The translations under genes were made by a program, and so were the position numbers. DNA of 64,000 bases from Gemmatimonadota bacterium (GTDB taxonomy: Bacteria > Gemmatimonadota > Gemmatimonadetes > Longimicrobiales > Gaopeijiaceae): positions 30,486 through 94,485 of the forward strand of contig JAJDXG010000045.1 of assembly GCA_022823365.1 (NCBI GenBank). The letters run 5' to 3'. Each line of letters opens with the position of its first letter. Positions within the stretch are counted from its first letter, which is position 1. The notes beneath the pieces are model-generated. The model had not been told where the DNA came from. It did no database searches and saw nothing but the letters and a program-made list of their open reading frames with translations. This document shows positions 5,712 to 63,418 of this stretch, in pieces.

Positions 5712-5719
5712 GGTGTTCT

Positions 5720-5974: not shown

Positions 5975-5979
5975 TAGGG

Positions 5980-6008
5980 ATGATATCGTAATTTGATACC
6001 TGCATCAA
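5980..6008 (-). promoter_or_regulatory. candidate sigma70-type promoter of hicAB (TTGATG-17 nt-TATCAT), implying a near-leaderless transcript
   Basis: The minus strand reads TTGATG caggtatcaaattacga TATCAT ccctaATG. The -10 element ends 5 nt before the hicA ATG. This is a local AT-rich patch in a GC-rich background. Confidence 0.4.
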
Positions 6009-6089
6009 CTCACTACTCCCGGAAGCGCGGGTTGTGCCGCCGTCCAGGTCCATCCCGCGATATGAGGCCAGGCTGACGCCCATGGATCC

Positions 6090-8868: not shown

Positions 8869-8881
8869 GGGTCGCCTGGGA

Positions 8882-9199: not shown

Positions 9200-9229
9200 G
9201 GGTGTCCTCGTCGTGTAAGCGGGTTCGGT

Positions 9230-9246
9230 ATGAGAATCATTCTCAT
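9230..9246. promoter_or_regulatory. Fur-box-like perfect 17-bp palindrome upstream of feoAB
   Basis: ATGAGAAT-C-ATTCTCAT. Its core TGAGAATCATTCTCA matches the 7-1-7 Fur consensus TGATAATNATTATCA, with one symmetric mismatch per half-site. It lies about 31 nt upstream of the feoA ORF start. Confidence 0.6.
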
Positions 9247-9401
9247 TCGCAAGCGCTGGAGAAGCAAGGGGAGCGTTGCCACGGCGTGGACCAGTGTCGC
9301 ACGCAACACCGGGGCGCCGTATCTTGCCTTGTTTGAGGTTGGGGCGCGCGAGCCATCGGGTCCGGGCGCCATCTTTGGGCCCTGCGAGGGAGAGAATCGA
9401 G

Positions 9402-11033: not shown

Positions 11034-11042
11034 GGAGAGAGA

Positions 11043-11894: not shown

Positions 11895-12970
11895 GGGCGG
11901 AGTTCCGGAGGGGTCGACCACGGGAATCGCAACAGGCTGCGCGGCCGGCCGGGACCGGTCGCAAGAGGTCGCAGACGGGCGCTGCCCGGGCGGTCCATCA
12001 GGCCGTCGGCGGCCAGCAGCAGAAGCGCCAGCAGGGTCAGCCAGGTTACCGGGTCGCCTACGCCGCCGCTGCCTTCACCGTCTTCGGGAACGCGGCGGAA
12101 ACGGGCGGCGAGTTCGGCCAGGCCGCGGTCGTCGGACGCGTCCAGGTAGCCGCCCCCGCCGGCGCGGGCGACACCCCGTAGCAGCCGTTCATTCAGCCGC
12201 GAGACCACCGGTGCGCCGCCTGCGTCCGTGACCGGAGCGCCCGCGCCGTCCCCCAGCCCCGCCCCCGCCGCCGTGCCGATCCCCGCGACCCAGATGCGGA
12301 CATCCCCCGCCGCCGCGAGGGCCGCGCTGTCCGCGACCGCGAACTCGTCCTCGTGCGCCTCGCCATCGGTCACCAGCACGATCACGCGCTCCCTTCCCTC
12401 CTCCCGGCGCGCGTCGAGCTGGCGCCGCGCCTCGCCGATGGCCCCGCTCACCCGGGTGCCCTGGTCGCGCTCGCCCAGGAAGTTCTCCGCCAGCGAGTCG
12501 GCGAAGAAGCGCACCACCTGCTGGTCGGCGGTAATCGGGGCGAGCGTGTGCGGCCAGTCGGCGAACACCACCAGTCCGACGCGCTCGCCCGGGAGCGCCT
12601 CCAGTAGCGCGCCGACCACCTCCTTGGCGCGGCTCATGCGCCCGCCCGGCACGTCCCGCGCCCCCATCGACGCGGAGATGTCCAGCGCGACAACGACGTC
12701 GACCGGACGCGAGGCGCTCAGGCTGATTCCCGGCCCGAAGCGCACGCCGGCGGCCGCGAGGACCATCACGGTCACGGCAACGCCGAGAACCCGTAACCGC
12801 CGCCGGGGAAAGTCCACCAGGTCGCGGGTGGTGAGGCGCGCGGCCGCCTCCTCTCCGCCGAACCCCTCTGCCAACCGCCGCAGCCGCCGGGTGGTCCAGG
12901 CCAGCGCGAAGGCGGCCAAGCCGATCGCGACCGGCAGAAGGAGCAGGAGCACCGGGCGCGCAAACGTCAT
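11891..12970 (-). CDS. VWA domain protein (BatB-like)
   Basis: N-terminal TM helices and the MIDAS motif VVALDISASM, then GLVVFADWPHTLAPIT and VIVLVTDGEAHED. Confidence 0.85.
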   Translation of the reverse strand: MTFARPVLLLLLPVAIGLAAFALAWTTRRLRRLAEGFGGEEAAARLTTRDLVDFPRRRLRVLGVAVTVMVLAAAGVRFGPGISLSASRPVDVVVALDISASMGARDVPGGRMSRAKEVVGALLEALPGERVGLVVFADWPHTLAPITADQQVVRFFADSLAENFLGERDQGTRVSGAIGEARRQLDARREEGRERVIVLVTDGEAHEDEFAVADSAALAAAGDVRIWVAGIGTAAGAGLGDGAGAPVTDAGGAPVVSRLNERLLRGVARAGGGGYLDASDDRGLAELAARFRRVPEDGEGSGGVGDPVTWLTLLALLLLAADGLMDRPGSARLRPLATGPGRPRSLLRFPWSTPPELRP

Positions 12971-49096: not shown

Positions 49097-50053
49097 TCAG
49101 GCCGTCCTGTCCATCGGATTCGCGGCGAAGGCGGCGCGCAGCTTCGGGTGCTTGCGCCACAGGTAGTATCCCATCCCGCCTGCGGCCAGCACGTTCGCGA
49201 ACGCGATCGACGTCCAGGCCAGGGGACCGAGCAGGAACTCGGCCCCGAGCGCGATAAAGCCCATGAAGGCGGCCTCGAATGCGACGAACAGGAGCACGGC
49301 GCCGAGCAGGAGCGGCGGCACTTCCTCCGCCTGCGTAAGGACGGCCGACGCGACCACCCCCATCACCGCGAACGCGGCGAGGTGCACGGCAGAGTAACCC
49401 ACCACCGCCCCCATGTGGATCGAGACGGCGTCGAGGTCGGTGACCCCGAGGAACAGGGCCGAGCCCAGCGCGCTGGGCGTGAAGAAGGGCTGCCCCGAAA
49501 CCGCGTCGAAGATCAGGAACCAGACCGCCACCACTGCCGCCCCGATCAGCCCCGCGACGATCCCCTCCGTCAGGATGTGCTGGCGGCGCATGATCGACCA
49601 CCAGCTGACCTCCGGCGCCGCCCCCATCATGTGCAGGTAGCCGACCAGCGTCACCCCGGCGATGAGATTGCCGGTCAGATACTCGAGCCACCCCAGATTC
49701 TCGACGATGTCCACTCCGGTAACCGCAACGCTGGCAAAGAACACCAGCTCGTACAGCACGAAACCGACGATCAGCCCCGCCAGCACGCCGGGCACCGCCC
49801 TGATTTTGCCCAGCAGCCAGGCTACCGCCACCCCGGCCAGCGCGAAGAGCGCCAGGTGAATCACGGAGTACAGCACGATGTTGCCGGCAGTCACGACGAC
49901 CGTATCACGACCCAGGAGGGCGGCTTCCAGGAACGCCGGGGTGCGGAAGGGCTGACCCTGTGAGGCGTCGATGGCCAGAAACCACAGCGCCATCGCAACG
50001 GCGCCGAGCATGCCCGACAGGGCCCCGGGATAGAAGAACCGTTTCACGAACAT
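49097..50053 (-). CDS. hypothetical polytopic membrane protein with internal duplication
   Basis: 318 aa. The two halves align, for example LGAVAMALWFLAIDASQGQPFRTPAFLEAALLG against LIGAAVVAVWFLIFDAVSGQPFFTPSALGSALFLG. Confidence 0.6.
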   Translation of the reverse strand: MFVKRFFYPGALSGMLGAVAMALWFLAIDASQGQPFRTPAFLEAALLGRDTVVVTAGNIVLYSVIHLALFALAGVAVAWLLGKIRAVPGVLAGLIVGFVLYELVFFASVAVTGVDIVENLGWLEYLTGNLIAGVTLVGYLHMMGAAPEVSWWSIMRRQHILTEGIVAGLIGAAVVAVWFLIFDAVSGQPFFTPSALGSALFLGVTDLDAVSIHMGAVVGYSAVHLAAFAVMGVVASAVLTQAEEVPPLLLGAVLLFVAFEAAFMGFIALGAEFLLGPLAWTSIAFANVLAAGGMGYYLWRKHPKLRAAFAANPMDRTA

Positions 50054-50283: not shown

Positions 50284-50550
50284 TCAGAATTCCGTCAGCA
50301 CGGCGATCACCAGAATCACCGCCAGCGGCAGCGGGCTCGCGGCCAGGATCCACAGCCGTTTGGGCTCGAACTTCAGGTGCATGTAGTAGAGCGCCACCAG
50401 CAGGGCCTTCCAGAGCGCCATGAGGATCAGACCCGTGGCGAGCAGCCACTGCGGGAGGGCGAGAAACGCGTACCCCACCTCGGCCATCGTCAGAACGAAA
50501 AGTATGAACCAGATCAGGAAGTATCTGGGTTCTTGCCCGTTGCCTGCCAT
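50284..50550 (-). CDS. cytochrome c oxidase subunit IV (prokaryotic small subunit)
   Basis: 88 aa with three TM helices. LVALYYMHLK is typical of bacterial CoxIV/CtaF-like proteins. Directly follows subunit III. Confidence 0.75.
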   Translation of the reverse strand: MAGNGQEPRYFLIWFILFVLTMAEVGYAFLALPQWLLATGLILMALWKALLVALYYMHLKFEPKRLWILAASPLPLAVILVIAVLTEF

Positions 50551-50593: not shown

Positions 50594-51229
50594 TCAGATC
50601 AGGTAAACGATGGTGAACAGGATGATCCACACCAGGTCCACGAAGTGCCAGTAGAGACCCATGATCTCCACCGCCCCGTAGTTGTCCGCAGAGTACTTGC
50701 CCTGCCACGCCCGGTACAGCACGAACCACATGCACAGAATCCCGATGGTGACGTGGGTCCCGTGGAATCCGGTCATCGTGTAGAACGTGGCTCCGTACAG
50801 GGCGGCTCCCTCGATTTCGTGGGCCACTCCGTACAGCTCCACCATGGGAACGAATCCCTCCCGGGCCAGGATGATGTACTCGACCACCTGAACCCCGACG
50901 AAGAAGGTGCCCAGCAGAATCGTCACCAGGAGCCAGAACCGGAGTCCCTTCTGGTCGCCCTGCGTGATCGCGGCGTAGGCCTTGACCATCGACACGCTCG
51001 AGCAGATCAGCACAAACGTGTTGAATGCCGTGAGCGGCACGTTGAGCACTGCACCGGGCTCGGCGAAATGATCCGGGTGGGCGAATCGGAGGATGATGTA
51101 GGACCCGATCAGGGCCGTGAAGAACATCACTTCCGACAGCAGGAAGATCCACATTCCCAGCTTTACGTTGTAGACCATCATCCCGGGCATGGGATGCCGG
51201 TCGGCTGTCGATGCGGCTGGTTGGCTCAT
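50594..51229 (-). CDS. ctaE: cytochrome c oxidase subunit III
   Basis: GMWIFLLSEVMFF, FYTMTGFHGTHVTIG and YWHFVDLVWI are subunit III signatures. Confidence 0.9.
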   Translation of the reverse strand: MSQPAASTADRHPMPGMMVYNVKLGMWIFLLSEVMFFTALIGSYIILRFAHPDHFAEPGAVLNVPLTAFNTFVLICSSVSMVKAYAAITQGDQKGLRFWLLVTILLGTFFVGVQVVEYIILAREGFVPMVELYGVAHEIEGAALYGATFYTMTGFHGTHVTIGILCMWFVLYRAWQGKYSADNYGAVEIMGLYWHFVDLVWIILFTIVYLI

Positions 51230-51306: not shown

Positions 51307-53067
51307 CTAGTCCGCTACCGGCTGGGGTTCGAGCGCGGGCGCGGCGGTCTCGCGGGGCGGGGGCGCGTCCTGCAGCCAGTAGTCCTCTTCCACATCCGGC
51401 GCGGAGTACTCGTAGGGCCCGCGGTAGACGATGGGCACCAGCTCGAAGTTGCCGTGCGGCGGCGGCGACGGCACCGTCCACTCCAGGGAGTTGGCGTGCC
51501 ACGGGTTGTTGCCGGCCTTTTTCCCCTTCCAGATGCTGATGATGAAGTTGAGGGCGTAGATCGCCTGAACCGCCACCAGCGCGAACACGCACACCGTGAT
51601 GAACTGGTTGATGGGCTGCAGGGGCTGCAGGAACTCGTACTGAGTGGGGTCGTAGATGCGCCGCATGTGTCCCTGGATCCCGATCGAGTGCATGGGCCAG
51701 AACACCAGGTTGTAGAGGATCAGCGTCAGCCAGAAGTGGATCCTGCCCCATTTCTCGTTCATGAGGCGGCCGAACATCTTCGGATACCAGAACGTGATGC
51801 CCGCGAAGATCGCGAACAGGCTGCCGCCGAAGAGCACGTAGTGGATGTGCGCCACGATGAAGTAGGTGTCGTGGATGTAGACGTCGACCGGGGTCGAGGC
51901 CATGAACACGCCGGAGAGCCCGCCGATGATGAACATCGACACGAAGCCCAGGGCGTGCAGCATGGGGGTGTGCAGGTGGATGTTCCCCTTGTAGATGGTC
52001 CCCAGCCAGTTGAACACCTTGATGGCGGACGGCACCGCGATGACCATGGTCGTGATCATGAAGGTGGTGCCGAGCATCGGGTTCATGCCGCTCTGGAACA
52101 TGTGGTGACCCCACACGATCCATGACAGGAAGGCGATGGAGACGATCGCCAGCACCATGGCGTGGTAGCCGAAGACGGGCTTGCGCGCGCCGTTGGCCAG
52201 CACGTCCGAGGTGATGCCCATTGCGGGCAGGATGAGGATGTAGACCTCCGGGTGCCCGAAGAACCAGAACAGGTGCTGCCAGAGGAGCGGCTCGCCGTCG
52301 CTGGCCGGCAGGAAGAACCCGGTCCCGATGGTCTGGTCGAAGAGCAGCATGATCAGCGCGCCCGCCAGGATCGGGATCGCCAGCAGGATCAGGATCGCGG
52401 TGATGAAGAGTGCCCAGGTGGCCAGCGGCATCCGGAACCAGGTCATCCCGGGCGCGCGCATGTTGATGATGGTCGTGATGTAGTTGACCGCCCCCGCGAG
52501 CGATGCGAAGCCCAGGATGGTGAGGCTGATCAGCCAGAGCTGCTGCCCCAGGTAGACGCCGGTGTACTCACCGCTCGCGCTGAGCGGGGCGTACGACGTC
52601 CATCCGGCTCCGGCGGCGCCTCCCTCGACCGCGAAGCTCGCCAGCATCAGCAGTCCGGCGGGGAAGGCCATCCAGAACGACGCCATGTTGAGGCGCGGGA
52701 AGGCCATGTCGTCGGCGCCGATCTGGAGCGGGATCAGCAGGTTGCCGAAGACCCCCACCAGCAGCGGCATGATCGCGAAGAAGATCATGATGGTGCCGTG
52801 CATGGTGACCAGCGAGTTGTAGAACTCGGGCAGCATGATGGCGCCGGCGGGCGTGGGGGCCATCATCTCGTCCGGCAGGAGCATGCCACCGGGCATGGGC
52901 TCGCTCGGAAACCCCAGCTGCCACCGGATCATCGCTGCCAGCAATCCTCCCACGACCAGGAAGAACAGGCTCATCAGCAGGAACTGGATGGCGATGATCT
53001 TGTGGTCGGTCGAGAAGACGTAACGCCGAATCCACGGCATCTCGTGGGCGTGCCCGTGCGCGTCCAT
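51307..53067 (-). CDS. ctaD: cytochrome c oxidase subunit I (heme-copper oxidase, A-type)
   Basis: STDHKIIAIQF, WFFGHPEVYILILPAMG, VWGHHMF and FIVAHIHYVLFGG are canonical subunit I motifs. Confidence 0.95.
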   Translation of the reverse strand: MDAHGHAHEMPWIRRYVFSTDHKIIAIQFLLMSLFFLVVGGLLAAMIRWQLGFPSEPMPGGMLLPDEMMAPTPAGAIMLPEFYNSLVTMHGTIMIFFAIMPLLVGVFGNLLIPLQIGADDMAFPRLNMASFWMAFPAGLLMLASFAVEGGAAGAGWTSYAPLSASGEYTGVYLGQQLWLISLTILGFASLAGAVNYITTIINMRAPGMTWFRMPLATWALFITAILILLAIPILAGALIMLLFDQTIGTGFFLPASDGEPLLWQHLFWFFGHPEVYILILPAMGITSDVLANGARKPVFGYHAMVLAIVSIAFLSWIVWGHHMFQSGMNPMLGTTFMITTMVIAVPSAIKVFNWLGTIYKGNIHLHTPMLHALGFVSMFIIGGLSGVFMASTPVDVYIHDTYFIVAHIHYVLFGGSLFAIFAGITFWYPKMFGRLMNEKWGRIHFWLTLILYNLVFWPMHSIGIQGHMRRIYDPTQYEFLQPLQPINQFITVCVFALVAVQAIYALNFIISIWKGKKAGNNPWHANSLEWTVPSPPPHGNFELVPIVYRGPYEYSAPDVEEDYWLQDAPPPRETAAPALEPQPVAD

Positions 53068-53769
53068 CTACTGGTCCTCCTGATCGTCGGCGTCGTCAGC
53101 GTCGTCGGCGTCCGCGCTCTGGGAGGCGACCCACGCGTCGAATTCGGTCGCCTCGTATACGTTGAGGGTCCCCCCCATGGTCGTATGCAGATTACCGCAG
53201 AGTTCGGCGCAACCGATGGGATACGCGCCCGCGGCGGTCGCCTCGAACCAGACGGTGATGTCCATCCCCGGAACCGCGTCCTGCTTCACCCGCATCTCGG
53301 GCAGGAAGAACGAGTGCAGCACGTCCTCCGACCGGAGGGTGATGTTGACCGCCTGGTTCACCGGGACATGCATGATGTTGATGGTCGAGATGTCGTCGGC
53401 GGTGCCGGTGACCCCGTCCGCGCCCGCGTAGGTGATCTCCCACTCGAACTGCTTCGCGTTGACGATGTAGTCGAGGGCGTCGGCGGGCACGCTGTCCGGG
53501 TTCTTCATCATGTTCCACGAAGGGATGCTGATGAAAGCCAGGCCCAGCACGGCGATGAAGGGGACGGTGGTCCAGATGATCTCCGCCTTCGTCGACCCGT
53601 GGATGTAGGTGGCCTTCTGCCCGTCGCGCCGCCGGTAGCGGATGACGAAATAGACCAGGAGCGCCTCGGTGATCACGAAAACGATTCCCGTGACCACGAG
53701 GATCGCGTAGTACAGGAAGTCGACGTCCGGCCCAAAGGTCGAGTAACTGTCGGGGAGCATCCAGCTCAT
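53068..53769 (-). CDS. ctaC: cytochrome c oxidase subunit II (CuA, no fused cytochrome c)
   Basis: Two N-terminal TM helices, SEDVLHSFFLPE, and the CuA site CAELCGNLHTTM. Acidic tail ADADDADDADDQEDQ. AGGAGAA precedes the ATG at 53769. Confidence 0.9.
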   Translation of the reverse strand: MSWMLPDSYSTFGPDVDFLYYAILVVTGIVFVITEALLVYFVIRYRRRDGQKATYIHGSTKAEIIWTTVPFIAVLGLAFISIPSWNMMKNPDSVPADALDYIVNAKQFEWEITYAGADGVTGTADDISTINIMHVPVNQAVNITLRSEDVLHSFFLPEMRVKQDAVPGMDITVWFEATAAGAYPIGCAELCGNLHTTMGGTLNVYEATEFDAWVASQSADADDADDADDQEDQ

Positions 53770-53883: not shown

Positions 53884-54762
53884 CTAATGGGTCGCGGGAG
53901 CGAGAGCGTGGGCTCCGGGACCGTGCGGATCGATCGGCTCGCCCATCGGCACCACTGCGTTGGCCGCCATGGCTTCCGAGAAGGAGAAGCTCACCATCGC
54001 GGTCTCGCCGGTGGTGACGGTGACGCTTGCGGTCTGCGTGCCGTAGCGCTCGTGCCAGGCCTCGACCACGTAATCGCCGGGCGGGAGCATGCCCAGGTCG
54101 GCGCCTCCCGCCATGTCCGTGACCCCGTGGAAGGGGTGGTCCAGCACGCCCACGTAGGCGCTCATCCAGCCGTGCACGTCGCAGCGCACCGGGACCATCA
54201 CCTCCGCCAGCGGGAAGCTGCGGTTGGTGTCCATGTTCACCGGCTGGCTGATGTTGAAGCCGCGGTTTTCGCTGGGCGATGCGTTGATGTTGTGGGGCAG
54301 GCCGTCCGAGTTGCGGAAGGTGAGGTCCTGTCCCGCCTGCACGCCCACGACCCGGGGCACGTAGCGGCAGCCGACCTGGTCCATCACCACCGCGCCGCCC
54401 GGGGTGGGGAAGCTCATGCCCGCGTCGAGGCCTTCCCTGACGTAGACGAAGACGTTGGCCAGGCCGCCGCCGTCACCCACCACGACCTCCTCGGTCATCG
54501 GGGCATCGGTGTACCGGGCCGCGCAATTCGGCTCGGACGCCATGTCGATCGCATCCATTTCGGGCGCCATGCCCTCGAACATCACCATTGCGTTGATGCC
54601 GCCCGCGGTGGCCATGTCGACGGGAGAGGCCATCTCCTCGCCAGCGGCCTCTTCCTCCATGCCGCCGCCGGCCTCACCGCCACCGCCGCCGCCGCAGGCG
54701 ATCGCAAACACCGCAGCCGCCGCCATCACCATGGCCCGGCCGCATCCGAACAGGTCTCTCAT
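53884..54762 (-). CDS. cupredoxin (type-1 copper-like) lipoprotein with C-terminal CarboxypepD_reg-like domain
   Basis: Lipobox AIACGG after ATG 54762, which is preceded by GGAGGAAGG. Candidate T1Cu ligands are SDGLPHN and CDVHGWM (C-x2-H-x2-M). The C-terminal GDYVVEAWHERYG..VTV looks like an Ig-like domain. Confidence 0.65.
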   Translation of the reverse strand: MRDLFGCGRAMVMAAAAVFAIACGGGGGGEAGGGMEEEAAGEEMASPVDMATAGGINAMVMFEGMAPEMDAIDMASEPNCAARYTDAPMTEEVVVGDGGGLANVFVYVREGLDAGMSFPTPGGAVVMDQVGCRYVPRVVGVQAGQDLTFRNSDGLPHNINASPSENRGFNISQPVNMDTNRSFPLAEVMVPVRCDVHGWMSAYVGVLDHPFHGVTDMAGGADLGMLPPGDYVVEAWHERYGTQTASVTVTTGETAMVSFSFSEAMAANAVVPMGEPIDPHGPGAHALAPATH

Positions 54763-54797: not shown

Positions 54798-56384
54798 CTA
54801 CGCGTCGCCCTCATCCGCGCCCTCGGCGCCTTCCCGCTCACGCCTCTGGGCCCGGGCTACCACCAGCACGCCCAGCCCGGCGGTGAGCAGCGTCGCGATG
54901 AGCGGCGCGACCACCACGGTGGCTGGCGTCGGTTCCTGCAGAAAAATGTAATGCCATGAGCTGATCGAGCCCCGGGTTCCTGTTTCTCCGTTGTCGCCGT
55001 CCCACGCCGCGAAACCGACGGGCACCGGCTCGCCGATGCGGAACTGCAGATCGCCCGGATCCTCGTTCTCAAGAACGCGGCGGAACATAACAGCCCAGCG
55101 CCCCGCCGAAAACGCCGCCTCCGACACGAGCGACTGGCTGGCGTCGCCCTGGGGGGCCATGGTGCCCAGCCCGCGGGCGTCCGCCTCCTGCGCGCCGTCC
55201 GCCGTGCTCTCCCAGTGCCACAGGTACACGGGCTCCAGCGGATCTCCCAGGAGGAAATAGGGCTTGTCCATCCCCTCCGGGATTTCCATCGGGAACTGGA
55301 GGTACAGGCCGTCGGGTCTGGGACCCGGCTCCATGTCGCCCTCGTCGGGTCCCACCGCCGCCAGGACCTGGGCCTGGAAGCCGGCCCAGGCGGTATCGGG
55401 GCTCTCGGAATGGTCGCTCCAGGACACGTGCACGGCGAGTTCGCCGCCATCGTGCAGGGCGCGCACCCACAGCCCAGCCACCTGCGGGACAAACCAGCGC
55501 GGGCTCTCGATGATCTGCCCGCCCATGGGGATATAAAACGCCTCCGCCGACTCCCAAAGCGGGTCGTCGACGCCCTCCGGAAGGGGCGCGTCCTCGACCA
55601 GGCCGGCCCGGATCACCTCGGTGATGCCCGGCGGGTCCTCGGGAGCGAAGCTGCGCACGTAGTGCGCGAGGTTCCACAACTGTTCGTCGGTGATGACCCC
55701 GGCGTCGATCAGGTCGGTGAACGACGGCATCGGCGTGCCGTCCAGACCGGTGCGCAGCCGCTGGTAGATGTCCTCGACCGTGCCGCCGCCGTTGAAATAC
55801 CAGTTCTCGGTCAGGTCCGCCGAGTAGGTGGGCATTCCCGAGTCGTCAACGAGCGTCGGAGAGGAGGTGCCGTCGCCCCTCCCGTCGATGCCGTGGCAGC
55901 GATTGCACTCGATGAGCTCGTATACCTCCCGCCCGTCGGCGAGCGCTTCTTCGGTGGCGCGCGTCGGGCTGCTGAAGGTCAGCGGCTCGGGGGCCTCGCC
56001 GGCGGCGAAGAACCGGGAGAAGCTCTTGAGGTAGTCGACGAGCGCCAGCCTCTCCTCGAGGCTGAGCTCTTCCTCCCATCCGGGCATGGTCGTGCCCGGC
56101 ATGCCTTCGTTGATGACGCGCATGATGTCGTCGTCGGTGGGAAGCTGCCCGCTCGCGGTGGTACGGATCTGATAGAGCGCCTGGGTGAAGTCGCGCGGGC
56201 GCGGCAGCATCCAGGTCGCCGCGTAGCCGTCGCCGAGGCCTTCGTAGCCGTGGCACGACGCGCACCAGCGGTCGTAGACGTCGCGCCCCAGCGCGTTCTC
56301 TTCCTGGGCGGCGAGAGGGGCCGACGCGGCGCACGTCACAGCCGCCGCAAGTACGAAACCGGGGATCATCGCTCGCGCCCGCAT
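54798..56384 (-). CDS. diheme cytochrome c fused to an EB_dh (ethylbenzene-dehydrogenase gamma / DOMON-like) heme-binding domain, C-terminal TM anchor
   Basis: Two CxxCH sites (CASCH, CNRCH). The EB_dh-like pattern follows: WVRALHDGGELAVHVSWSD, YLQFP, VYLWHW, AAFSAGRWAVMFRR and VGFAAWDGDNGE. The ATG overlaps the upstream stop (TGATG at 56382..56386). Confidence 0.75.
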   Translation of the reverse strand: MRARAMIPGFVLAAAVTCAASAPLAAQEENALGRDVYDRWCASCHGYEGLGDGYAATWMLPRPRDFTQALYQIRTTASGQLPTDDDIMRVINEGMPGTTMPGWEEELSLEERLALVDYLKSFSRFFAAGEAPEPLTFSSPTRATEEALADGREVYELIECNRCHGIDGRGDGTSSPTLVDDSGMPTYSADLTENWYFNGGGTVEDIYQRLRTGLDGTPMPSFTDLIDAGVITDEQLWNLAHYVRSFAPEDPPGITEVIRAGLVEDAPLPEGVDDPLWESAEAFYIPMGGQIIESPRWFVPQVAGLWVRALHDGGELAVHVSWSDHSESPDTAWAGFQAQVLAAVGPDEGDMEPGPRPDGLYLQFPMEIPEGMDKPYFLLGDPLEPVYLWHWESTADGAQEADARGLGTMAPQGDASQSLVSEAAFSAGRWAVMFRRVLENEDPGDLQFRIGEPVPVGFAAWDGDNGETGTRGSISSWHYIFLQEPTPATVVVAPLIATLLTAGLGVLVVARAQRREREGAEGADEGDA

Positions 56385-57187
56385 CAGTGCTCCTCCCCTT
56401 CGGCGCCCTCTTCCTCCCAGGTGCGCGGCTCCCAGCCGGTCTGTTCGTAGAGGTAGATGGTCACCTGCCAGATCTCTTCGGCGGTAAGCAGGTCCTCCCA
56501 GGCGGGCATCGCCGAGTCCCAGGGCGTGGCCTCGCGCGGAAGTCCGGGGCCGCCCTTGGCGATGCGCCAGAAGACGAAGCTCTCCGTGAGCTGTACGATG
56601 GTGCCCGGGTCCTGGAAGCTGAGGGGCGCGGGGTTGAAGGCGCTGGCAAAGTGCCCTTGCCCGTCCAGTGCGTCGCCGTGGCAGGGCATGCAGTTCTGGA
56701 CGTAGATCCTCTTGCCTTCTTCGTAATGTTCCTCAAGGTCACCCTCGTGCCGGAGCGGGTTCTCGAGGCCGTTGAGGACCATGGTCTCGCCGCGGAAGTC
56801 GATCTGGCCCGGGGGCGCGGGGTGCACCGAACGCAGCGCGGCCGGCGCCGAGACCGTGGGCCGCACCCGGTCGAAGGTCATGAAGGCGACCAGCAGGGGA
56901 ATGGTGACCATGAGCGCTGTCCGCAGAACCTTCTGGCGCGGATCGACCATGACCCGGTGGATGGGGGCCTTGAACTGCTTCCAGCGCTCCTCGGAGTCGC
57001 TGACCCAGATCAGCACGCCCACAACCACGGTCCCCATGTACTGCAGGACCACGGTGGCGGGCACCGGCGCGCTGGCGACCCCGAAGAGGGGCGGCAGGAG
57101 CCAGATGCCCCATTCGAAGAGGACGTACGCCAGCACCACGACGATCGCCGCCTGGCCCAGCGGATGCTTCCAGGGCTTGGTGTTCAT
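56384..57187 (-). CDS. membrane-anchored monoheme cytochrome c
   Basis: About three N-terminal TM helices, then one CxxCH (CMPCH) in a class I-like domain (YVQNCMPCHG ... MPAW). GGGAGGAG precedes the ATG at 57187. Confidence 0.75.
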   Translation of the reverse strand: MNTKPWKHPLGQAAIVVVLAYVLFEWGIWLLPPLFGVASAPVPATVVLQYMGTVVVGVLIWVSDSEERWKQFKAPIHRVMVDPRQKVLRTALMVTIPLLVAFMTFDRVRPTVSAPAALRSVHPAPPGQIDFRGETMVLNGLENPLRHEGDLEEHYEEGKRIYVQNCMPCHGDALDGQGHFASAFNPAPLSFQDPGTIVQLTESFVFWRIAKGGPGLPREATPWDSAMPAWEDLLTAEEIWQVTIYLYEQTGWEPRTWEEEGAEGEEH

Positions 57188-57214
57188 CGATTCTCCTCCC
57201 TCAAGGCGCGCCTC

Positions 57215-58015
57215 CTATCTCTGCGATGCGATGAACTGCACGATCGCCTCGAGTTCGGCCGCCGGGATGTTCCCGAAGATCGGGGGCATTATCCCGAGCA
57301 TCGCCTCGAACCCCTCGGCCGCCGACGCGGTCGGATCGAGGATGGACGTCCGGATTTCGTCGGCGGTCAGGCGACTGCCCATGCCCTCGTAGGACGGTCC
57401 CAGCGGCGATTGCCCGGTGACCGCGTGGCAGGTGGCGCAGGTGTGCCGGGTCAGAAGCTCTTCCGGGTCGAGGGGCCCGGTCGGACCCAGCACCGGGGCG
57501 GCGGGCGCGCTCGCCACCACCCCGCCCGCGGCTGCCGCTCCACCGTCGTCTGCGAAATCCGCCCCCGAAACCGTGACCTCCCCTCCCAGGGACTGCAGGT
57601 AGGCCACCAGCGCCCAGATCTGCACGGAGGAGAGGGTGCGGCTCGCGTCCAGCATGATGGGCGCGAACCCCTCCACCAGGTAGGCGTTGGGGTCCACCAT
57701 CGACGTATGCAGGTACTGCTTGCAGTCCTCGCCCGCGACGCGGTTCGCGCAGCGCTCGCCGATGAGCCCGGTCCCCGCGTGGTCGGTGAGCAGGTTCGGC
57801 GCGCGCTCGCCCAGGCCGTGGCAGGCCGTGCAACCGCCGCCGCCGTTGTACAGCTCCTCGCCCGCCGCGATGAGCTCCTCGGGGGTGACGTCGTCCGACA
57901 ACACCAGATCCTCGGGCACGTCCGACTGGATCTGCGGGATGGCGTTGGCGACCCAGGTGAACACGCCCAGGCAGCCGATCACAACGGCCAGGATACTCAG
58001 GTTGGTCTTTAGCAT
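57215..58015 (-). CDS. membrane-anchored diheme cytochrome c
   Basis: One N-terminal TM helix and two class I domains with CTACH and CATCH, each followed by a distal Met region (PIM, IMPP). GGGGAGG precedes the ATG at 58015. Confidence 0.8.
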   Translation of the reverse strand: MLKTNLSILAVVIGCLGVFTWVANAIPQIQSDVPEDLVLSDDVTPEELIAAGEELYNGGGGCTACHGLGERAPNLLTDHAGTGLIGERCANRVAGEDCKQYLHTSMVDPNAYLVEGFAPIMLDASRTLSSVQIWALVAYLQSLGGEVTVSGADFADDGGAAAAGGVVASAPAAPVLGPTGPLDPEELLTRHTCATCHAVTGQSPLGPSYEGMGSRLTADEIRTSILDPTASAAEGFEAMLGIMPPIFGNIPAAELEAIVQFIASQR

Positions 58016-58024
58016 CTGCCTCCC

Positions 58025-59815
58025 CTATCCCTCGCTGGGTGCCGGCTGAAGTTCGCTCTGGATCCCGCCCGCGGCCGACGCCCGGCCCGCCGACGAAATC
58101 ACGGGTTTCTCGGCCAGCGAGCCCAGCCAGAAGATGAAGGCCACCAGCCCGAAGAAGATGAGCACGCAGGCCGAGATGACCACCGACGAATAGCCCAGCG
58201 CCGGGGTGGCGGCCCAGGGGCTGGTGTCGCGAATGACCTCGAAGACGTGCCAGTGCTGGCGGATGCCGCTGCGCGCGAAGCCCATGAGGCCCATCAGCCA
58301 GGTGAAGGTCACCGCCAGGATGAAAAGCGCGTACTGCGAGCGCTGCGGCATGCGGCCCCACTGGATCTCGCCTCTCGAGGTGGCGCCGCGGAGCATCAGC
58401 AGGTCGATGGTGATCACCCCGATGATGCACGCGAGCACCGTGAGTACCTGGTAGACCGAAAAGCCGATGCGCACGAGCGTCGGCACCATGTAGCCGTAGA
58501 TCCCGTAGAACAGCACGATCGCCGAGGCCACCACGAAGATCGCGCCCTGCACGATCGTGCCGGTGCGCGCCCACGGCACCACCGGTTCCTTGTTGGCGCG
58601 CCGGTAGAGCAGGAACGACAGGAAGGTGGTCAGGATCATGAAGTTGACCGCCGTGTTCTTGCCGCTCATCAGCCCGAGGACGCTGAGGAAGGGGTGGTGC
58701 GTGCCGCCCATCGCCGCAAACTCCTCGCGGCTGGCGATCATGGTGTTGGGCGTCGCCCACACGATCACGCCCACGATGAGCACGGCGAGCATGTACTTCG
58801 TATAGGGCATGAAGCGCTCCGCCCCGGGTATTCGGCCCATCCCCACCCACAGGTAATAGTTGCCGGCGAGGAACAGTATCCCGATCAGGAAGGCCTGGAT
58901 GATCCACAGCCAGCTCATGAAGCCGCCCATCATGGTGATGCCCATCTGCTGGTTGAACTCGTAGATCTCGCGGCCCAGCCAGTAGCCCGCGAAGGGCAGA
59001 ACGATGAGCGCGCCGATGGCGATCATGTTGCCCACGTAGCCCATCCAGTCGTAGTGCGCCCGCTCCTCGTCGCTCTTTGCGGCCAGGAAGCGGTACGCCG
59101 CGTAGGCGCCGACCACCGCCCCGCCGAACACGACGTTGGCGATCAGCCGGTGGATGTTGATCGGCATCCAGGTCGCGTTGGTGAGCGCCGACCACAACTG
59201 CACCATCTGCGGAGCCGTGTCGACGGTGACGTCGGCCGGCGGGCTCATCATGTAGGTCAGCCAGCCGTTGGCGATGAACATGACGATCGTGCCCCACACG
59301 TTCAGGGCGATGCCCAGCCCCCAGTGGAACCACTTGGCGCGACCCTTCTTCCAGCGGTCCCAGCCGTAGTAGTACAGGTAGAGCGTGAAGGACTCGAAGA
59401 AGAAGAGCCCCACGTAGATCCACATCGACAGGTTGAAGATCTGCGCGAGATAGCTGAACAGGGTGGGGTAGATGGTGACCAGCAGGAAGAGCAGGATGCC
59501 GCCCCAGATGGCGGTCGCGGAGTACGCTACCAGCAGGAGCCGGGTGAACTCCTTGGACAGCTTGTCGTAGCGCTCGTCCCCACCGAACATGCCGATCGCC
59601 TCGGTGACCACCGCGAACATAGGTACGCCCAGCACGAAGGCGGCGAAGAGCAGGTGCACCTGGGCGGCGACCCACACCGCCGCCCGCCCGCCGATGACCG
59701 GGAAGTCGCCGTAGTCGCGCCCGGCGGGCACCTGGGCGAACGCGGGCTCCGCCATCACCAGGAGGACGAGCGCGCCCAGCAGAAGGATGGGTCCGGCGCC
59801 GGAGCGCCACGTCAT
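58025..59815 (-). CDS. cytochrome bd-like CydA homologue (CydA-only; no CydB nearby)
   Basis: ORF 58025..59950, with the start moved to ATG 59815 (MTWRSGAGPILLLGALVLLV). It aligns by eye to E. coli CydA: QVHLLFAAFVLGVP (His19 region), GLFFFESFTLYLYYYGWDRW (Glu107/GWDR region), FIANGWLTYMMSPP and NIHRLIANVVFGG (His186 region). A long additional polytopic C-terminal half follows. Confidence 0.8.
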   Translation of the reverse strand: MTWRSGAGPILLLGALVLLVMAEPAFAQVPAGRDYGDFPVIGGRAAVWVAAQVHLLFAAFVLGVPMFAVVTEAIGMFGGDERYDKLSKEFTRLLLVAYSATAIWGGILLFLLVTIYPTLFSYLAQIFNLSMWIYVGLFFFESFTLYLYYYGWDRWKKGRAKWFHWGLGIALNVWGTIVMFIANGWLTYMMSPPADVTVDTAPQMVQLWSALTNATWMPINIHRLIANVVFGGAVVGAYAAYRFLAAKSDEERAHYDWMGYVGNMIAIGALIVLPFAGYWLGREIYEFNQQMGITMMGGFMSWLWIIQAFLIGILFLAGNYYLWVGMGRIPGAERFMPYTKYMLAVLIVGVIVWATPNTMIASREEFAAMGGTHHPFLSVLGLMSGKNTAVNFMILTTFLSFLLYRRANKEPVVPWARTGTIVQGAIFVVASAIVLFYGIYGYMVPTLVRIGFSVYQVLTVLACIIGVITIDLLMLRGATSRGEIQWGRMPQRSQYALFILAVTFTWLMGLMGFARSGIRQHWHVFEVIRDTSPWAATPALGYSSVVISACVLIFFGLVAFIFWLGSLAEKPVISSAGRASAAGGIQSELQPAPSEG

Positions 59816-59849
59816 ACCAGGTTTCGGCACGTTTCTCTCCGAGGTGATT

Positions 59850-61298
59850 TCAACTCCGGGGAGCATCGTTCTCCTCCGGAATATCGTCGCGCGACGCGGC
59901 CGCGGACATCTGTTTGCGTAGGAAGAAAGGCAGTCGCCTGGAGAAATCAACCGGCATGCCGCGGCGCACCTCCGCCATCACGTCGGCGGTCACATTCGTG
60001 TACCCGCGCTTGCGCGCGTACGACTCGACGCGCTCGGACACCACGCCGCGCACGAAACTGGGCACCACGGACAGGCGCGCGCGCGCCTCTTCGGTCCAGG
60101 GGAGCCCGGGGGCGGTGTCGTCGCCGTACACAACCGCTCGCCGCGGCTCGATGACCGCCCGGTCGCCGACCGGATCGTAGGCGCAGGAGTCGTCGGGACC
60201 GAGCAGGTCGCCGGTCAGCGCGTGGGCGCGCGCGCGGCAGCCCCCGCACACCGAACGGTACTCGCAGCGCCCGCACCGACCGCCCAGCTCCCCGCCGCGC
60301 AGCCGGGCGAAGACGGGGGACGACTCCCACACCTGGCGGAAGGGGGTGGTGGTGAGGTCGCCGGCGACCACCGGCGTGTAGGGACAGGGGGTCACCTTCC
60401 CTTCGGGGGTGATGCGGCAGTAGTGCACGCCGCACGGGCAGCGGGTGCCGTAGTTGAGCAGCGGCGATTCCTCCCCACCCTCGATCACGTGGCGCATGAT
60501 CTGCGGCTGGCACTTGGAACGCACCATCATGCGGCCCCGGTACTTGCGCTCGAGCTCCACCAGCTCGGCCAGCACCTCCTCGTTCTCTTCCGGAGAGAGG
60601 CCCTGCATGCGTTCCCCGCGCCCCGTCGGAACCAGGAAGTACAGGTTGAACGAGACCGCGCCCCGGCTCTCCGCCCAGGCGGCGATCCCGGCGACTTCCG
60701 CCCGGTTGCCCCGGGTTACGCTGGTCTGGACGATGAAGTCCAGACGGTGGGCGGCGAGCCGGTCCACCGCGGCCAGGGTGTCGGAGAGCGCCCCCGACCC
60801 GTGGCGGAAGCGGTCGTGGTAGGTGTCGACCAGCGAGTCCACGCTGACCGCGACCCCCTTCACCCCCGCCTCCATGAGCGACTCGATGCGGCGGTCGGTG
60901 AGGCGGGTGCCGTTGGTGCCCACCACCACGGTGGCCCCGCCGGCGCTCGCCCGGGCGGCGATCTCTTCCAGGTCGTCGCGCAGGAGGGGCTCCCCACCCG
61001 AGAGAATGAGCACCGGGTTCGGGTTGACCTCCAGAACCTGGTCGAGCACGCGATGACATTCCGCGGTGGACAGCTCCGTTTCGGCCAGGTGCCAAGCTCC
61101 CGCGGAGATGTAGCAGTGCGCGCACTCCAGGTTGCAGCGCCGGGTGAGATTCCACGCGACGATGTGCGGGAGACCCGGAGCCGCCCCCGAATCCGCCGAT
61201 ACGCCTTCCGCGACCCAGCGCAGGGAGGGAGTGGTGGAGGATTCGGAGAAGCCGTTCCGCCCGACCGTGGGCAGAACGGGAGCGCGCGGACGGGCCAT
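59850..61298 (-). CDS. radical SAM/SPASM-type enzyme (AhbD/NirJ-like) with C-terminal PCP_red-like domain
   Basis: ORF 59850..61712, with the start moved to ATG 61298, overlapping the upstream stop (TGATG). Radical SAM cluster site RRCNLECAHCY, GGEPLL, and auxiliary Cys clusters CPCGVHYC..CPY and CGRCEYRSVCGGCRA. The C-terminal LPWTEEARARLSVVPSFVRGVVSERVESYARKRGYTNVT resembles standalone PCP-reductase-family domains. Confidence 0.85.
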   Translation of the reverse strand: MARPRAPVLPTVGRNGFSESSTTPSLRWVAEGVSADSGAAPGLPHIVAWNLTRRCNLECAHCYISAGAWHLAETELSTAECHRVLDQVLEVNPNPVLILSGGEPLLRDDLEEIAARASAGGATVVVGTNGTRLTDRRIESLMEAGVKGVAVSVDSLVDTYHDRFRHGSGALSDTLAAVDRLAAHRLDFIVQTSVTRGNRAEVAGIAAWAESRGAVSFNLYFLVPTGRGERMQGLSPEENEEVLAELVELERKYRGRMMVRSKCQPQIMRHVIEGGEESPLLNYGTRCPCGVHYCRITPEGKVTPCPYTPVVAGDLTTTPFRQVWESSPVFARLRGGELGGRCGRCEYRSVCGGCRARAHALTGDLLGPDDSCAYDPVGDRAVIEPRRAVVYGDDTAPGLPWTEEARARLSVVPSFVRGVVSERVESYARKRGYTNVTADVMAEVRRGMPVDFSRRLPFFLRKQMSAAASRDDIPEENDAPRS

Positions 61299-63418
61299 CA
61301 AGCCTCGTCCCGCCGCATGAACTGCTCGACGGCCGCCTTGGCGTCGGCGGGACTCACGGTCTTGAAGTCGACGGGGCAGTCGTCGGCCTGCTCGACCACG
61401 TCCCGGATCGGGCAGCGGGTCACGCCGGACGCTTTGGCTTCCTCGATGAACTTGCGCATCTCCGGGGTCAGCCCGTCGACACCCTCGGCGGCGGCCTTCA
61501 GCTGCTTGGTCTGCAGCTCCCGGAACATGACCAGCATGGTGTCGGTGTCGAAGGTGTCCGCCTCCATCATGGCCTGCTTGTTCTCGTCCATGACCCGCGT
61601 GGTGATGCGCCAGAAGTCGTGGTCGCGGGCGAAGCGCTCCACGGTGTTGCGGGCCAGGGGGCGGGCGATGAGGGGCACCGCGCCCAGCCGGTCGAAGGCC
61701 TCCTCGGTCCATACCACCGGGTCGGCGGCCGTGCGCGTTCGCTCATGCACGTGCCCGGTGTAGGGGCACGTCACCTCGATGGTCGGGTTGGCGGGCGCCG
61801 CATCGGCGTCGCTGCCCTCCACCACCGTGCGCTTCATGGCTTCCGCCGCCTTCACCTCGGCCAGGGCGAGCTCCTCGGCCGTGCCGATCCCCATGATGAG
61901 CTGCATGTGGGTGGGCAGCAGCTTTGCGATCGCCTCGTCCAGCCACTTGCTGGTCACCATCGGCAGGGTGGCGCCGGTGTCGCGGCCCGGCTCCAGCACC
62001 GGCGGCTCGGCTCCGTTGGATCCGTTGGCCCGCGCGCCCCGGGCACCGTTCGCCCCGGCCCCGTTGGCACCGGCGGATCCGTTGGCCGCGGGCCGGGACG
62101 CATCTTCACCCGGGCGCCAGTTCTCCAGCACGTACTCCTCCACCGCCTTGCGGGCGATGCCGAGCGCGAAGGGCGGGACGCGCAGGATGCGGACCTCCGC
62201 CTCCGGCGCCCACTCGAGCCCCATCTCGCCGTCTTCCTCGATCCAGGGAATCTCCTCGGGACGAACGTCGGTGGTGCCGATGAGGAGGATGTTCGCGTTC
62301 GACTGCCTGAGCAGGTTGTGCGCCTGGGACCCCAGATCCGTGCCCTCGATGCGGTGCGCCCCGTGGCGCGCGAGGATCAGCAGGCTGGGATCGACCTCCT
62401 CGGCCCACTGCAGGATGACCTGGAAGGGCTTGCCGATGAGCACCTGGGTCTCGACTTCGACCTCCGGGTACTCCTCGGCCATGATGCGCGCCCGCTTCAC
62501 GTTCGCCTGGGCGAGCTTGAGCAGGCCCTTGTCGATGATGTTGTTGTGAAGCTCCTCCTGCTCCTCGAACTTGAAGATCTTCGAGGCCTGCACCGAGAGG
62601 ACGTCCTTGATGTTGCCGAAGACCGCGTGATGGTATTCGACATCGAACGACGAGCCCACGTAGAGCTTCGCCCCGTACTCCGACGCCATCTCCAGGGCGA
62701 GGCGCATGGCCTTGTAGCTGTATGCGGAGCCGTCCACGCACACCATGAAGCTGCCCCCGGCGAGCGGGCGCTCGTTGCGCACCACGAAGGCGTCCTTCTC
62801 CACCTTCTGCAGCACGCGCGCCACCACCCCGCCGAGCTGCGAGTAGGGCTGATAGCCGATCCCGTGCGCCCCGATCACCATCAGGTCGTAGGCGCGGCCG
62901 CTCGATCCCGCCAGCTTCTCGTCGTGCTCCTCGTCCTCTGCGACGATCCGACCGTCATCGCCGAGGCGCACGTCGCTGCGCACCTTGTCGCCCCCGTCGT
63001 AGCTCGAGGCGATGTTGGGGTCGAAGCCGATGAGGCTCGGCAGGTGACCCTCCCCTGAATTCACCTCGCTCACCAGCTCCTCGTAGTTGATGCCCTCGAG
63101 AAGCTGGCGCGTGAGCGGCACGCCGGCGTCCCGGCACCGCCGGTCCACCTGGTCCAGGAAGGAGTCCGAGATGAGCTGCAGCCCCTTCTCGATCAGCTTG
63201 TCGTGGATCTTGCGCTGGCGCTTGATCTCCTTCTCGGTCTGGAACTGGGCGGGAAGGCCGGTCTCCAGCTGGCGGAAGCGGATGTCGTGCAGGCGTGCGG
63301 CGTAGACGTGGTTTCCGGTGATCCGGCCCTCGGAACGGTTCGCGAGTTCGATGGCGCGATCCACCGCCCAGTCCGACCAGGGCGAGTTGTCCACCGGCAC
63401 GAAGATCTCACGGTACAT
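61298..63418 (-). CDS. tandem universal stress protein (USP) domains fused to two PCP_red-like domains and a Cys-containing C-terminal region
   Basis: USP-like starts MYREIFVPVDNSPWSDWAVDRAIELA and FMVCVDGSAYSYKAMRLALEMA, with ends DLMVIGAHG and LLILARHGAH..GSQAHNLLR. PCP_red-like segments LEWAPEAEVRILRVPPFALGIARKAVEEYV and VVWTEEAFDRLGAVPLIARPLARNTVERFA. Confidence 0.8.
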   Translation of the reverse strand: MYREIFVPVDNSPWSDWAVDRAIELANRSEGRITGNHVYAARLHDIRFRQLETGLPAQFQTEKEIKRQRKIHDKLIEKGLQLISDSFLDQVDRRCRDAGVPLTRQLLEGINYEELVSEVNSGEGHLPSLIGFDPNIASSYDGGDKVRSDVRLGDDGRIVAEDEEHDEKLAGSSGRAYDLMVIGAHGIGYQPYSQLGGVVARVLQKVEKDAFVVRNERPLAGGSFMVCVDGSAYSYKAMRLALEMASEYGAKLYVGSSFDVEYHHAVFGNIKDVLSVQASKIFKFEEQEELHNNIIDKGLLKLAQANVKRARIMAEEYPEVEVETQVLIGKPFQVILQWAEEVDPSLLILARHGAHRIEGTDLGSQAHNLLRQSNANILLIGTTDVRPEEIPWIEEDGEMGLEWAPEAEVRILRVPPFALGIARKAVEEYVLENWRPGEDASRPAANGSAGANGAGANGARGARANGSNGAEPPVLEPGRDTGATLPMVTSKWLDEAIAKLLPTHMQLIMGIGTAEELALAEVKAAEAMKRTVVEGSDADAAPANPTIEVTCPYTGHVHERTRTAADPVVWTEEAFDRLGAVPLIARPLARNTVERFARDHDFWRITTRVMDENKQAMMEADTFDTDTMLVMFRELQTKQLKAAAEGVDGLTPEMRKFIEEAKASGVTRCPIRDVVEQADDCPVDFKTVSPADAKAAVEQFMRRDEA

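Follow-up and report, generated by a model that had tools for sequence, protein, structure and literature searches.

The element examined here lies in a 64,000-nucleotide stretch of contig JAJDXG010000045.1 (positions 30,486 to 94,485) from assembly GCA_022823365.1 of a Gemmatimonadota bacterium; we refer to this whole stretch as the window. Between 50.3 and 63.4 kb of the window, a row of tightly packed genes runs entirely on the minus strand. The row includes three consecutive genes that encode a 266-amino-acid (aa) diheme cytochrome c (57215-58015), a 267-aa monoheme cytochrome c (56384-57187), and a 528-aa protein in which a diheme cytochrome c is fused to an EB_dh domain (54798-56384). 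A sequence check confirmed that the last two genes share 1 nt in a TGATG start/stop overlap at 56384. We conclude that the three genes very probably encode the c-type cytochrome subunits of an OR-N2-type cytochrome bd-like membrane complex.

A first-pass annotation, made from the letters and open reading frames (ORFs) of the window, had described the trio as membrane-anchored c-type cytochromes with five CxxCH sites. This description held. The coordinates were exact, and the motifs were present as CTACH (residue 62) and CATCH (residue 193) in the 266-aa protein, CMPCH (residue 166) in the 267-aa protein, and CASCH (residue 41) and CNRCH (residue 160) in the 528-aa protein. The 1,061 aa hold five such motifs, where the composition of the window genes would predict 0.0025 and a six-frame background 0.06. 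The Pfam families Cytochrom_C and Cytochrome_CBB3 matched all three proteins. Lack of conservation of the CxxCH sites in orthologs had been named beforehand as grounds for rejecting the annotation; instead, all five were kept across 70 to 80 orthologous loci. Across the three cytochromes, the cysteines and histidines of the motifs and the presumed distal methionines (Met121 and Met243, Met227, and Met100 and Met219, respectively) were invariant or at least 95% conserved. In the 528-aa protein, both motifs and both methionines were invariant in 63 orthologs, and the 266-aa protein has an additional conserved pair, Cys89 and Cys98. With a CxxCH motif, a distal methionine, and a signal or anchor segment, each of the three proteins has the characteristics of a class I cytochrome c, and heme attachment is predicted for all of them.

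The topology of the proteins was read from hydropathy and from the sequences themselves. The 266-aa protein has a single N-terminal hydrophobic segment, which could act as a signal peptide or as an anchor. It is homologous to the crystallized Kustd1711 of Kuenenia (PDB 7zs0_A, E = 1.7e-20), a protein with heme potentials of about +350 mV (PMC11791136). The 267-aa protein begins with three transmembrane (TM) helices, and its charge distribution suggests that the N terminus is inside and the heme domain outside. Just past the third helix, at residues 119 to 123, this subunit carries the motif R-x-x-H-P, which is kept in 11 of 12 homologs of different lineages; its histidine, His122, may ligate a partner subunit's heme in trans or contribute to a quinone site. 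The 528-aa protein starts with a signal peptide; near its C terminus, a TM helix (about residues 490 to 508) precedes the basic sequence RAQRRER. In other lineages, the monoheme subunit is fused N-terminally to the diheme::EB_dh protein (homologs P0131, P0139, P0142, P0157, P0158, and P0161, and locus L087 at 10001-12298). These fusions are 650 to 810 aa long, and most of them keep the TM segment. Because such natural fusions exist, the separate monoheme and diheme::EB_dh subunits of the window are likely to act in one complex.

The architecture that had been proposed for the 528-aa protein, a diheme cytochrome c joined to an EB_dh/DOMON domain with a C-terminal TM helix, was upheld by Pfam, by sequence searches of the PDB, and by structure prediction. 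Specifically, EB_dh (PF09459) matched residues 274 to 471 with 57.8 bits (cutoff, 33.3; E = 2.1e-15). In NCBIfam, the protein scored below the cutoffs of both TIGR03477 (82 bits versus 169.85) and NF042980, the EbdC model (41 versus 400). A profile of 14 orthologs matched Kustc0457 (6h5l_B) over residues 31 to 251 with an E value of 1e-65, and its C-terminal half matched EbdC (2ivf_C, 1e-15) and NxrC (7b04_C, 6e-14). The AlphaFold2 (AF2) model (pLDDT, 79.5) consists of a helical half (residues 25 to 244), a beta-sandwich (257 to 482), and a long TM helix (493 to 523). Foldseek comparison of this model gave a target-normalized TM-score of 0.81 for 6h5l_B and of 0.60 to 0.78 for NxrC and EbdC. 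The structures ranked next were heme-free CBM9 sugar-binding modules and the cytochrome domain of cellobiose dehydrogenase.

The heme b that the first-pass annotation had assigned to this domain did not withstand the ligand check that the annotation itself had proposed. In EbdC (2ivf_C), the published axial ligands of heme b are Met108 and Lys201. In the HMMER alignment, NxrC also has methionine and lysine in these two columns, where the window protein has Leu379 and Gly472. Within the Gemmatimonadota clade, the first column holds L, M, R, G, K, or S and the second G, S, or A. The Met/Lys pair occurred in 23 of 157 sequences of the wider family; others had His/His, Met/Met, or a methionine in the second position only, and many had no plausible ligand. 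Since the canonical EbdC ligands align to Leu379 and Gly472, heme b in the EB_dh domain of the 528-aa protein is doubtful, and the protein would therefore belong to the ligand-less class of EB_dh fusions. The domain does contain a clade-invariant His311 and a near-invariant Met372, which could in principle serve as substitute heme ligands.

Some bd-like clusters carry two diheme::EB_dh paralogs. In locus L086, the paralogs at 2161-3717 and 7820-9511 differ at the EbdC ligand positions, one having Met/Met and the other Leu/Arg. In locus L085 (3702-5219 and 9248-10909), one paralog has Arg/Met, with one plausible ligand, and the other Gly/Arg. A different arrangement was seen in Armatimonadota (loci L081 and L082, 9290-18276), where a fusion of the Met/Lys type clusters with a molybdopterin protein of 1,152 aa, a 424-aa Fe-S protein (Fer4), a NarJ-like chaperone (Nitrate_red_del), and a protein resembling the cupredoxin of the window. 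This cluster looks as though it encodes an NXR/Nar-like enzyme (NXR, nitrite oxidoreductase) with a cytochrome c fused to its gamma subunit.

Fusions of this kind turned out to be widespread, and the suggestion that fusing EB_dh to cytochrome c is unusual had to be abandoned. The 528-aa protein had more than 1,746 matches at an E value of ≤1e-5, and the best 120 listed share its Pfam architecture. Among representatives of clusters at 50% identity, 8,984 matched at E ≤ 1e-3, and 890 of these reached E ≤ 1e-30; the best 150 were mostly full length, with 33 to 53% identity. The hosts include Gemmatimonadota, Rhodospirillales, Thermodesulfobacteriota, and Armatimonadota, and the source names are "c-type cytochrome," "ethylbenzene dehydrogenase-related protein," and "DMSO reductase family type II enzyme heme b subunit" (DMSO, dimethyl sulfoxide). 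The protein has moreover already been described as the alternative NxrC or EbdC-like subunit of bd-like oxidase clusters (PMC3578206; PMC6606698; bioRxiv 10.1101/2021.01.16.426971; bioRxiv 10.1101/2021.11.15.468770).

Upstream of the three cytochrome genes lies the gene for a CydA-like membrane subunit (58025-59950). That it belongs to the CydA superfamily, as first proposed, was borne out by a match of 80 bits to the Pfam family Cyt_bd_oxida_I over residues 89 to 341. The match spans positions 3 to 248 of the 418 positions of the profile, and alignments to PDB structures end at about residue 331. Homology to CydA is thus confined to the N-terminal four-helix region of a protein that, by hydropathy and inspection, has about 13 to 14 hydrophobic segments. 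Neither the Pfam profile nor the PDB alignments matched a Q-loop. The true start is probably Met46, at 59815, which precedes a signal-like segment; the TTG listed as the start at 59950 would be too far upstream. With at least 95% conservation in more than half of its columns, the CydA-like subunit is by far the best-conserved protein of the cluster. Four of its invariant histidines, H299, H419, and H566/H568 (in the motif RQHWH), lie beyond the bd-type ligands.

The residues of the CydA-like subunit point to OR-N2. In alignments to 5doq_A and 9r2g_A, its H99, Y179, E186, Y193/Y195, and H267 occupy the positions of H19, E99, E107, F114/F116, and H186. The reference signature of OR-N2 comprises H99, Y183, E190, Y197/Y199, H213, H269, M430/N434, S563, and W569 (Table S6 in bioRxiv 10.1101/2021.01.16.426971). 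The window protein has counterparts at H99, Y179, E186, Y193/Y195, H209, H267, M428/N432, S561, and W567, all of which were at least 95% conserved in 64 orthologs. Positions up to E186, as well as H267, were assigned by alignment to the two structures and the rest by local motif and offset, with H209 lying two residues off the column that HMMER aligned to H128 of 5doq_A. The gene neighborhood agrees with the residue signature. OR-N2 operons contain multiple cytochromes c and an ebdC homolog (bioRxiv 10.1101/2021.01.16.426971, supplement), and the operon of the window likewise has several cytochromes c and an EbdC homolog. The same work records OR-N as present in Gemmatimonadota.

On the other side of the cytochromes, intergenic gaps of only 35 and 114 nt lead through a cupredoxin gene to a cox operon. 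The cupredoxin (53884-54762) is a lipoprotein with the lipobox AIAC and type-1 copper ligands H157, C194, H197, and M200, followed by a CarboxypepD_reg-like beta domain. Its identification was sustained: the four ligands are invariant in orthologs, and the AF2 model matches cupredoxin structures (amicyanin, pseudoazurin, and plastocyanin, at target-normalized TM-scores of 0.6 to 0.7), while Copper-bind was matched only below the Pfam threshold. The protein is named "carboxypeptidase regulatory-like domain-containing protein" by NCBI and "plastocyanin" by JGI. Homologs with the same copper ligands adjoin bd-like modules (L087, 2235-3068 and 5925-6665) and the molybdoenzyme cluster of Armatimonadota (L081, 9290-9982). 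The operon that follows encodes an aa3-type (A-family) heme-copper oxidase (TIGR02866, 159.6 bits, above the NCBIfam cutoff). It consists of CoxB (53068-53769), which has a CuA motif and lacks a cytochrome c domain, CoxA (51307-53067), CoxC (50594-51229), and subunit IV, CoxIV (50284-50550). Downstream of CoxIV, a gene at 49097-50053 (minus strand) encodes a protein of 318 aa that has about eight hydrophobic segments and matches no Pfam or NCBIfam family. Its position is kept in 41 of 80 Gemmatimonadota loci, and weak partial matches lie elsewhere in 3 more. A Pfam search for bc1, ACIII (alternative complex III), or a molybdoenzyme partner covered 40 of the window's 48 gene-like ORFs (all but the genes at 31.5 to 36.4 kb and four small ORFs) and found none of them.

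To compare gene order, we scanned species-representative genomes for the cluster. Matches were found in 221 genomes, and the loci compared were the best 80 of these, at 50 to 95% identity. All 80 come from Gemmatimonadota, mostly Longimicrobiales, save a few labeled Gammaproteobacteria. The order Usp, radical SAM, CydA-like, diheme, monoheme, fusion, cupredoxin, CoxB, CoxA, CoxC, CoxIV was collinear in every Gemmatimonadota locus with enough flanking sequence. The contigs labeled "Gammaproteobacteria bacterium" are VXNP01000149.1, VXMG01000110.1, VYDD01000466.1, JAPPHB010000130.1, and JAHEKL010000272.1 (L001, L002, L003, L005, and L028, respectively), and a few of them are sponge-derived metagenome-assembled genomes (MAGs) at 95% identity. 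Four of the five match the window cluster at 94 to 100% protein identity, and L028 does so at 50 to 62%. Because all the other cluster loci retrieved belong to Longimicrobiales or other Gemmatimonadota, these labels look wrong. The window, too, most probably derives from a Longimicrobiales MAG, which may be associated with a sponge.

Outside the Gemmatimonadota, we compared six contexts, five of which contain genes for the CydA-like, diheme-like, monoheme-like, and fusion proteins; the sixth is the molybdoenzyme context of Armatimonadota. In these other lineages (Rhodospirillales, Thermodesulfobacteriota, and others), identity to the window proteins was about 50% for the CydA-like subunit and 27 to 47% for the cytochromes. 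The module lies next to aa3 cox genes only in Gemmatimonadota; in the five contexts elsewhere, it stands without them. The term "oxidase operon" used in the first-pass annotation therefore does not describe the module in general.

The first two genes of the row encode accessory proteins. One (61298-63418) is a 706-aa protein with tandem Usp domains and PCP_red domains by Pfam; the other (59850-61712) is a radical SAM/SPASM protein resembling AhbD and NirJ2, with a C-terminal PCP_red domain. The latter scored 270 bits against TIGR04545 and 269 bits against TIGR04055, both below the NCBIfam cutoffs. As listed, its ORF and the Usp gene share about 415 nt. More distant loci keep the two genes separate (e.g., L020, with Usp at 3117-5147 and radical SAM at 5229-6485), and the real start is therefore near or downstream of 61300. 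Usp-PCP_red and AhbD/NirJ2-like radical SAM-PCP_red genes accompany the bd-like module across phyla (L083, 10071-13032; L084, 4461-6918 and 11763-12449; L085, 11104-12641), with a stand-alone PCP_red protein added in some loci. Of the five bd-like contexts outside the Gemmatimonadota, three have Usp-PCP_red and two have radical SAM-PCP_red. PCP_red is the C-terminal domain of subunit B of protochlorophyllide reductase, and the recurrence of the two genes suggests the maturation of a special tetrapyrrole. The Kuenenia cluster likewise includes a uspA gene, kustd1706 (PMC6423088). We found nothing relevant in the literature that links PCP_red (PF08369) to bd-like modules, and neither the Usp nor the radical SAM genes are mentioned in the supplement of Murali et al. 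(2021).

What might such a module do next to an aa3 oxidase? The reading we tentatively favor is that it is a quinol:cytochrome c/cupredoxin oxidoreductase that stands in for complex III and feeds the aa3 oxidase. The complex would consist of the CydA-like subunit, with about 14 TM helices and b-type heme ligands, the Kustd1711-like diheme cytochrome c, the three-TM monoheme cytochrome c, and the anchored diheme c::EB_dh protein. Menaquinol would be oxidized at the CydA-like subunit, and electrons would pass from its b hemes to the membrane-bound c hemes, and from these to the cupredoxin lipoprotein, directly to CuA of the aa3 oxidase, or both. On this reading as on an oxidase reading, the five c hemes would form a chain on the periplasmic face that carries electrons between high-potential carriers and the CydA-like subunit to which it is attached, and the periplasmic wire that was originally envisaged remains a reasonable reading. 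Because both canonical heme ligands are missing in this lineage, the EB_dh-like domain would more likely serve in docking or as a scaffold than as a sixth heme site.

Several observations argue for a complex III role. Across the phylum, the module is collinear with an aa3 operon whose CoxB has no CxxCH, and the cupredoxin gene sits between the module and the cox genes. Most Gemmatimonadota genomes are reported to lack both bc1 and alternative complex III (ACIII): among 326 genomes, with functions assigned by KEGG annotation of MAGs, petB was found in 23%, ACIII in less than 10%, and A-family oxidase in 74%, and the authors noted that novel complex III modules may exist in the phylum (PMC9426454). 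The module also occurs in strict anaerobes such as Kuenenia, which argues for a role other than O2 reduction elsewhere, and the potentials of about +350 mV of the Kustd1711 hemes fit a high-potential wire. Finally, a quinone-interacting, ACIII-like role has been proposed for the module before (PMC3578206; PMC6606698).

Other observations weigh against this interpretation. With the canonical Q-loop gone, no quinol-binding site is recognizable in the CydA-like protein. None of the five bd-like contexts outside the Gemmatimonadota has an adjacent aa3 operon. The percentages for bc1 and ACIII describe the phylum as a whole rather than the carriers of the cluster, and annotation of this kind may undercount. 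We found no report in the literature of a biochemical characterization of any bd-like module. Lastly, the CydA residues that are kept, the equivalents of H19, E107, and H126, are those of the O2-reducing heme and the proton path, which fits an oxidase at least as well.

The alternative that fares best is a terminal oxidase, in which the cytochromes c, perhaps with the cupredoxin, would feed the CydA-like subunit, O2 would be reduced at the heme of the H19 equivalent, and aa3 would be a second oxidase supplied by the same donors. We regard this as a real possibility, albeit one that we doubt somewhat. Besides the three residues just named, the equivalent of H186 is conserved in this CydA superfamily member. 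An AhbD/NirJ-like radical SAM protein and the tetrapyrrole-type PCP_red domains tied to the module hint at a modified catalytic heme. OR-N enzymes have been classed as oxygen reductases with cytochrome c as the suggested donor (Murali et al., bioRxiv 10.1101/2021.01.16.426971), and TO_1, at the 98th percentile, is the top-expressed candidate oxidase in "Candidatus Manganitrophus" (bioRxiv 10.1101/2021.11.15.468770). Yet the glutamate ligand of heme b595 is replaced by serine in OR-N2, so that the three-heme site of bd oxidases is not intact, and the occurrence of the module in strict anaerobes does not fit O2 reduction. Two terminal oxidases in one conserved operon are also uncommon, whereas operons that combine complexes III and IV, such as qcrCAB-ctaCDEF and the act-cox clusters, are common. 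Moreover, an oxidase would leave the missing complex III of Gemmatimonadota unexplained.

It is improbable, in our view, that the module is instead an electron-entry or other redox device that collects electrons from periplasmic dehydrogenases or reduces NO, nitrite, or a chlorine oxyanion at a heme modified by the radical SAM protein. Room for such a role is left by the fact that the function of the module is only predicted in every organism, and the extra invariant histidines of the CydA-like subunit and the tetrapyrrole-related accessory genes would be in keeping with it. So would a pyrroloquinoline quinone (PQQ)-dependent dehydrogenase in the window (38698-40560, plus strand). This beta-propeller protein has an N-terminal cytochrome c domain with CAVCH at residue 44, the sole CxxCH in window genes outside the three cytochromes, and might donate electrons to the cytochrome chain in the periplasm. 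None of the substrates named has specific evidence in its favor, however, and coupling within a respiratory chain is the simpler explanation of the conserved link to aa3.

Very improbable is a third alternative, first proposed for "alternative NxrC," in which the 528-aa protein would be the gamma subunit that anchors a periplasmic type II DMSO reductase-family molybdoenzyme (NXR/Nar/Ebd-like), encoded elsewhere, to the membrane. Its EB_dh fold is nearest to NxrC and EbdC, and a homologous fusion in Armatimonadota adjoins Molybdopterin, Fer4, and Nitrate_red_del genes. Against this, the window protein has Leu/Gly where that homolog has Met/Lys, the scanned window genes include no molybdoenzyme gene, TIGR03477 was matched at less than half of its cutoff, and NarGHI and NrfAH occur in 2 to 10% of Gemmatimonadota genomes (PMC9426454). 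We therefore rejected an NXR gamma-subunit role for this lineage on the grounds of ligands, gene context, and the rarity of Nar/Nxr in the phylum; for the Armatimonadota homolog, the role appears to hold.

Returning to the complex III reading, a bolder form of it would make the OR-N2 module the missing quinol:cytochrome c oxidoreductase of Gemmatimonadota, bound in a fixed supercomplex with aa3, with EB_dh as a heme-less docking scaffold and a tetrapyrrole in the CydA-like subunit that is tailored by the radical SAM and PCP_red proteins. We consider this combination unlikely as a whole. If a complex III role alongside aa3 were true, the interest of the module would be clearly higher. Genome studies had already described the gene set, its order, and the EB_dh fusion as parts of a widespread module. 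Three points for which we found no earlier description are refinements of it: the module is strictly coupled to aa3 across the phylum, this lineage lacks the canonical heme b ligands, and Usp-PCP_red and AhbD/NirJ-like radical SAM-PCP_red genes recur alongside the module. In nitrite and manganese oxidizers, bd-like modules rank with the most strongly transcribed genes of respiration. Gemmatimonadota offer an NXR-free setting, in which the module is tied to aa3 across the phylum and classical complex III is mostly missing. Cultured isolates of the phylum exist (PMC9426454), and a MAG of Gemmatimonas sp. carries the cluster (L075), so the choice between a complex III surrogate and a novel oxidase can be tested directly. 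For purification work, the apparent loss of the heme b ligands and the radical SAM and PCP_red genes are concrete leads.

Among known systems, the closest functional analogy would be with ACIII-caa3 and the actinobacterial QcrCAB-CtaCDEF, where a quinol-oxidizing module with membrane-bound c hemes lies beside an A-family oxidase and a soluble cytochrome c is not needed. The window module differs from bc1 and ACIII in that it has no homology to their catalytic subunits, and quinol reactivity of its CydA-like subunit is putative. Its parts have known relatives as well. Kustc0457 (6H5L chain B), the diheme partner of the HAO-like (hydroxylamine oxidoreductase-like) protein Kustc0458, is 45% identical to residues 31 to 251 of the 528-aa protein, and both CxxCH motifs align. 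Kustc0457 occurs on its own, as the soluble partner of an octaheme enzyme, whereas in the window the domain is joined to EB_dh and a TM helix within one protein. Residues 257 to 482, approximately, share fold and sequence homology with EbdC (2IVF chain C) and NxrC (7B04 chain C). In contrast to them, the window protein has Leu379/Gly472 in place of Met108/Lys201, a diheme cytochrome c and a TM anchor fused to the domain, and no molybdoenzyme partner nearby.

At the level of the whole module, OR-N2 as described by Murali, Gennis, and Hemp (2021) shares with the window about 14 TM helices, the lack of a Q-loop, histidines at H19 and H186, tyrosine at E99, glutamate at E107, and Tyr-x-Tyr at F114/F116. 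That description does not include Usp-PCP_red, radical SAM-PCP_red, the cupredoxin, or linkage to aa3, and our placement of the window in OR-N2 is by residue signature and operon content. TO_1 of "Candidatus Manganitrophus noduliformans" consists of a bd-like oxidase of clade I, two cytochromes c, and a periplasmic cytochrome b (Yu et al., bioRxiv 10.1101/2021.11.15.468770). In the window, the counterpart of this "periplasmic cytochrome b" lacks the canonical heme ligands, and the host belongs to the Gemmatimonadota rather than being a manganese-oxidizing lithotroph of the Nitrospirota. A further likeness is to a cluster conserved in Nitrospina, Nitrospira, and Kuenenia, in which Lücker et al. 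(2013, PMC3578206) describe an alternative NxrC together with one monoheme and one diheme cytochrome c, cupredoxin-like proteins, and a bd-like oxidase that has 14 TM helices and lacks a Q-loop. In Kuenenia, kustd1712 (cydA-like), kustd1711 (diheme), kustd1710 (monoheme), and kustd1709 (diheme) correspond one by one, in type and in order, to the four genes of the window. For Kustd1711, this likeness rests on sequence (7zs0_A), and for kustd1709, kustd1710, and kustd1712, it rests on gene order and annotation. Usp and cupredoxin-like genes are also found with this module in the nxr clusters of nitrite oxidizers and anammox bacteria (bd-like_3/alt_NxrC_2 in Nitrospira). Whereas the module keeps company with NXR there, the scanned parts of the window contain no NXR, and the module is joined to an aa3 operon instead.

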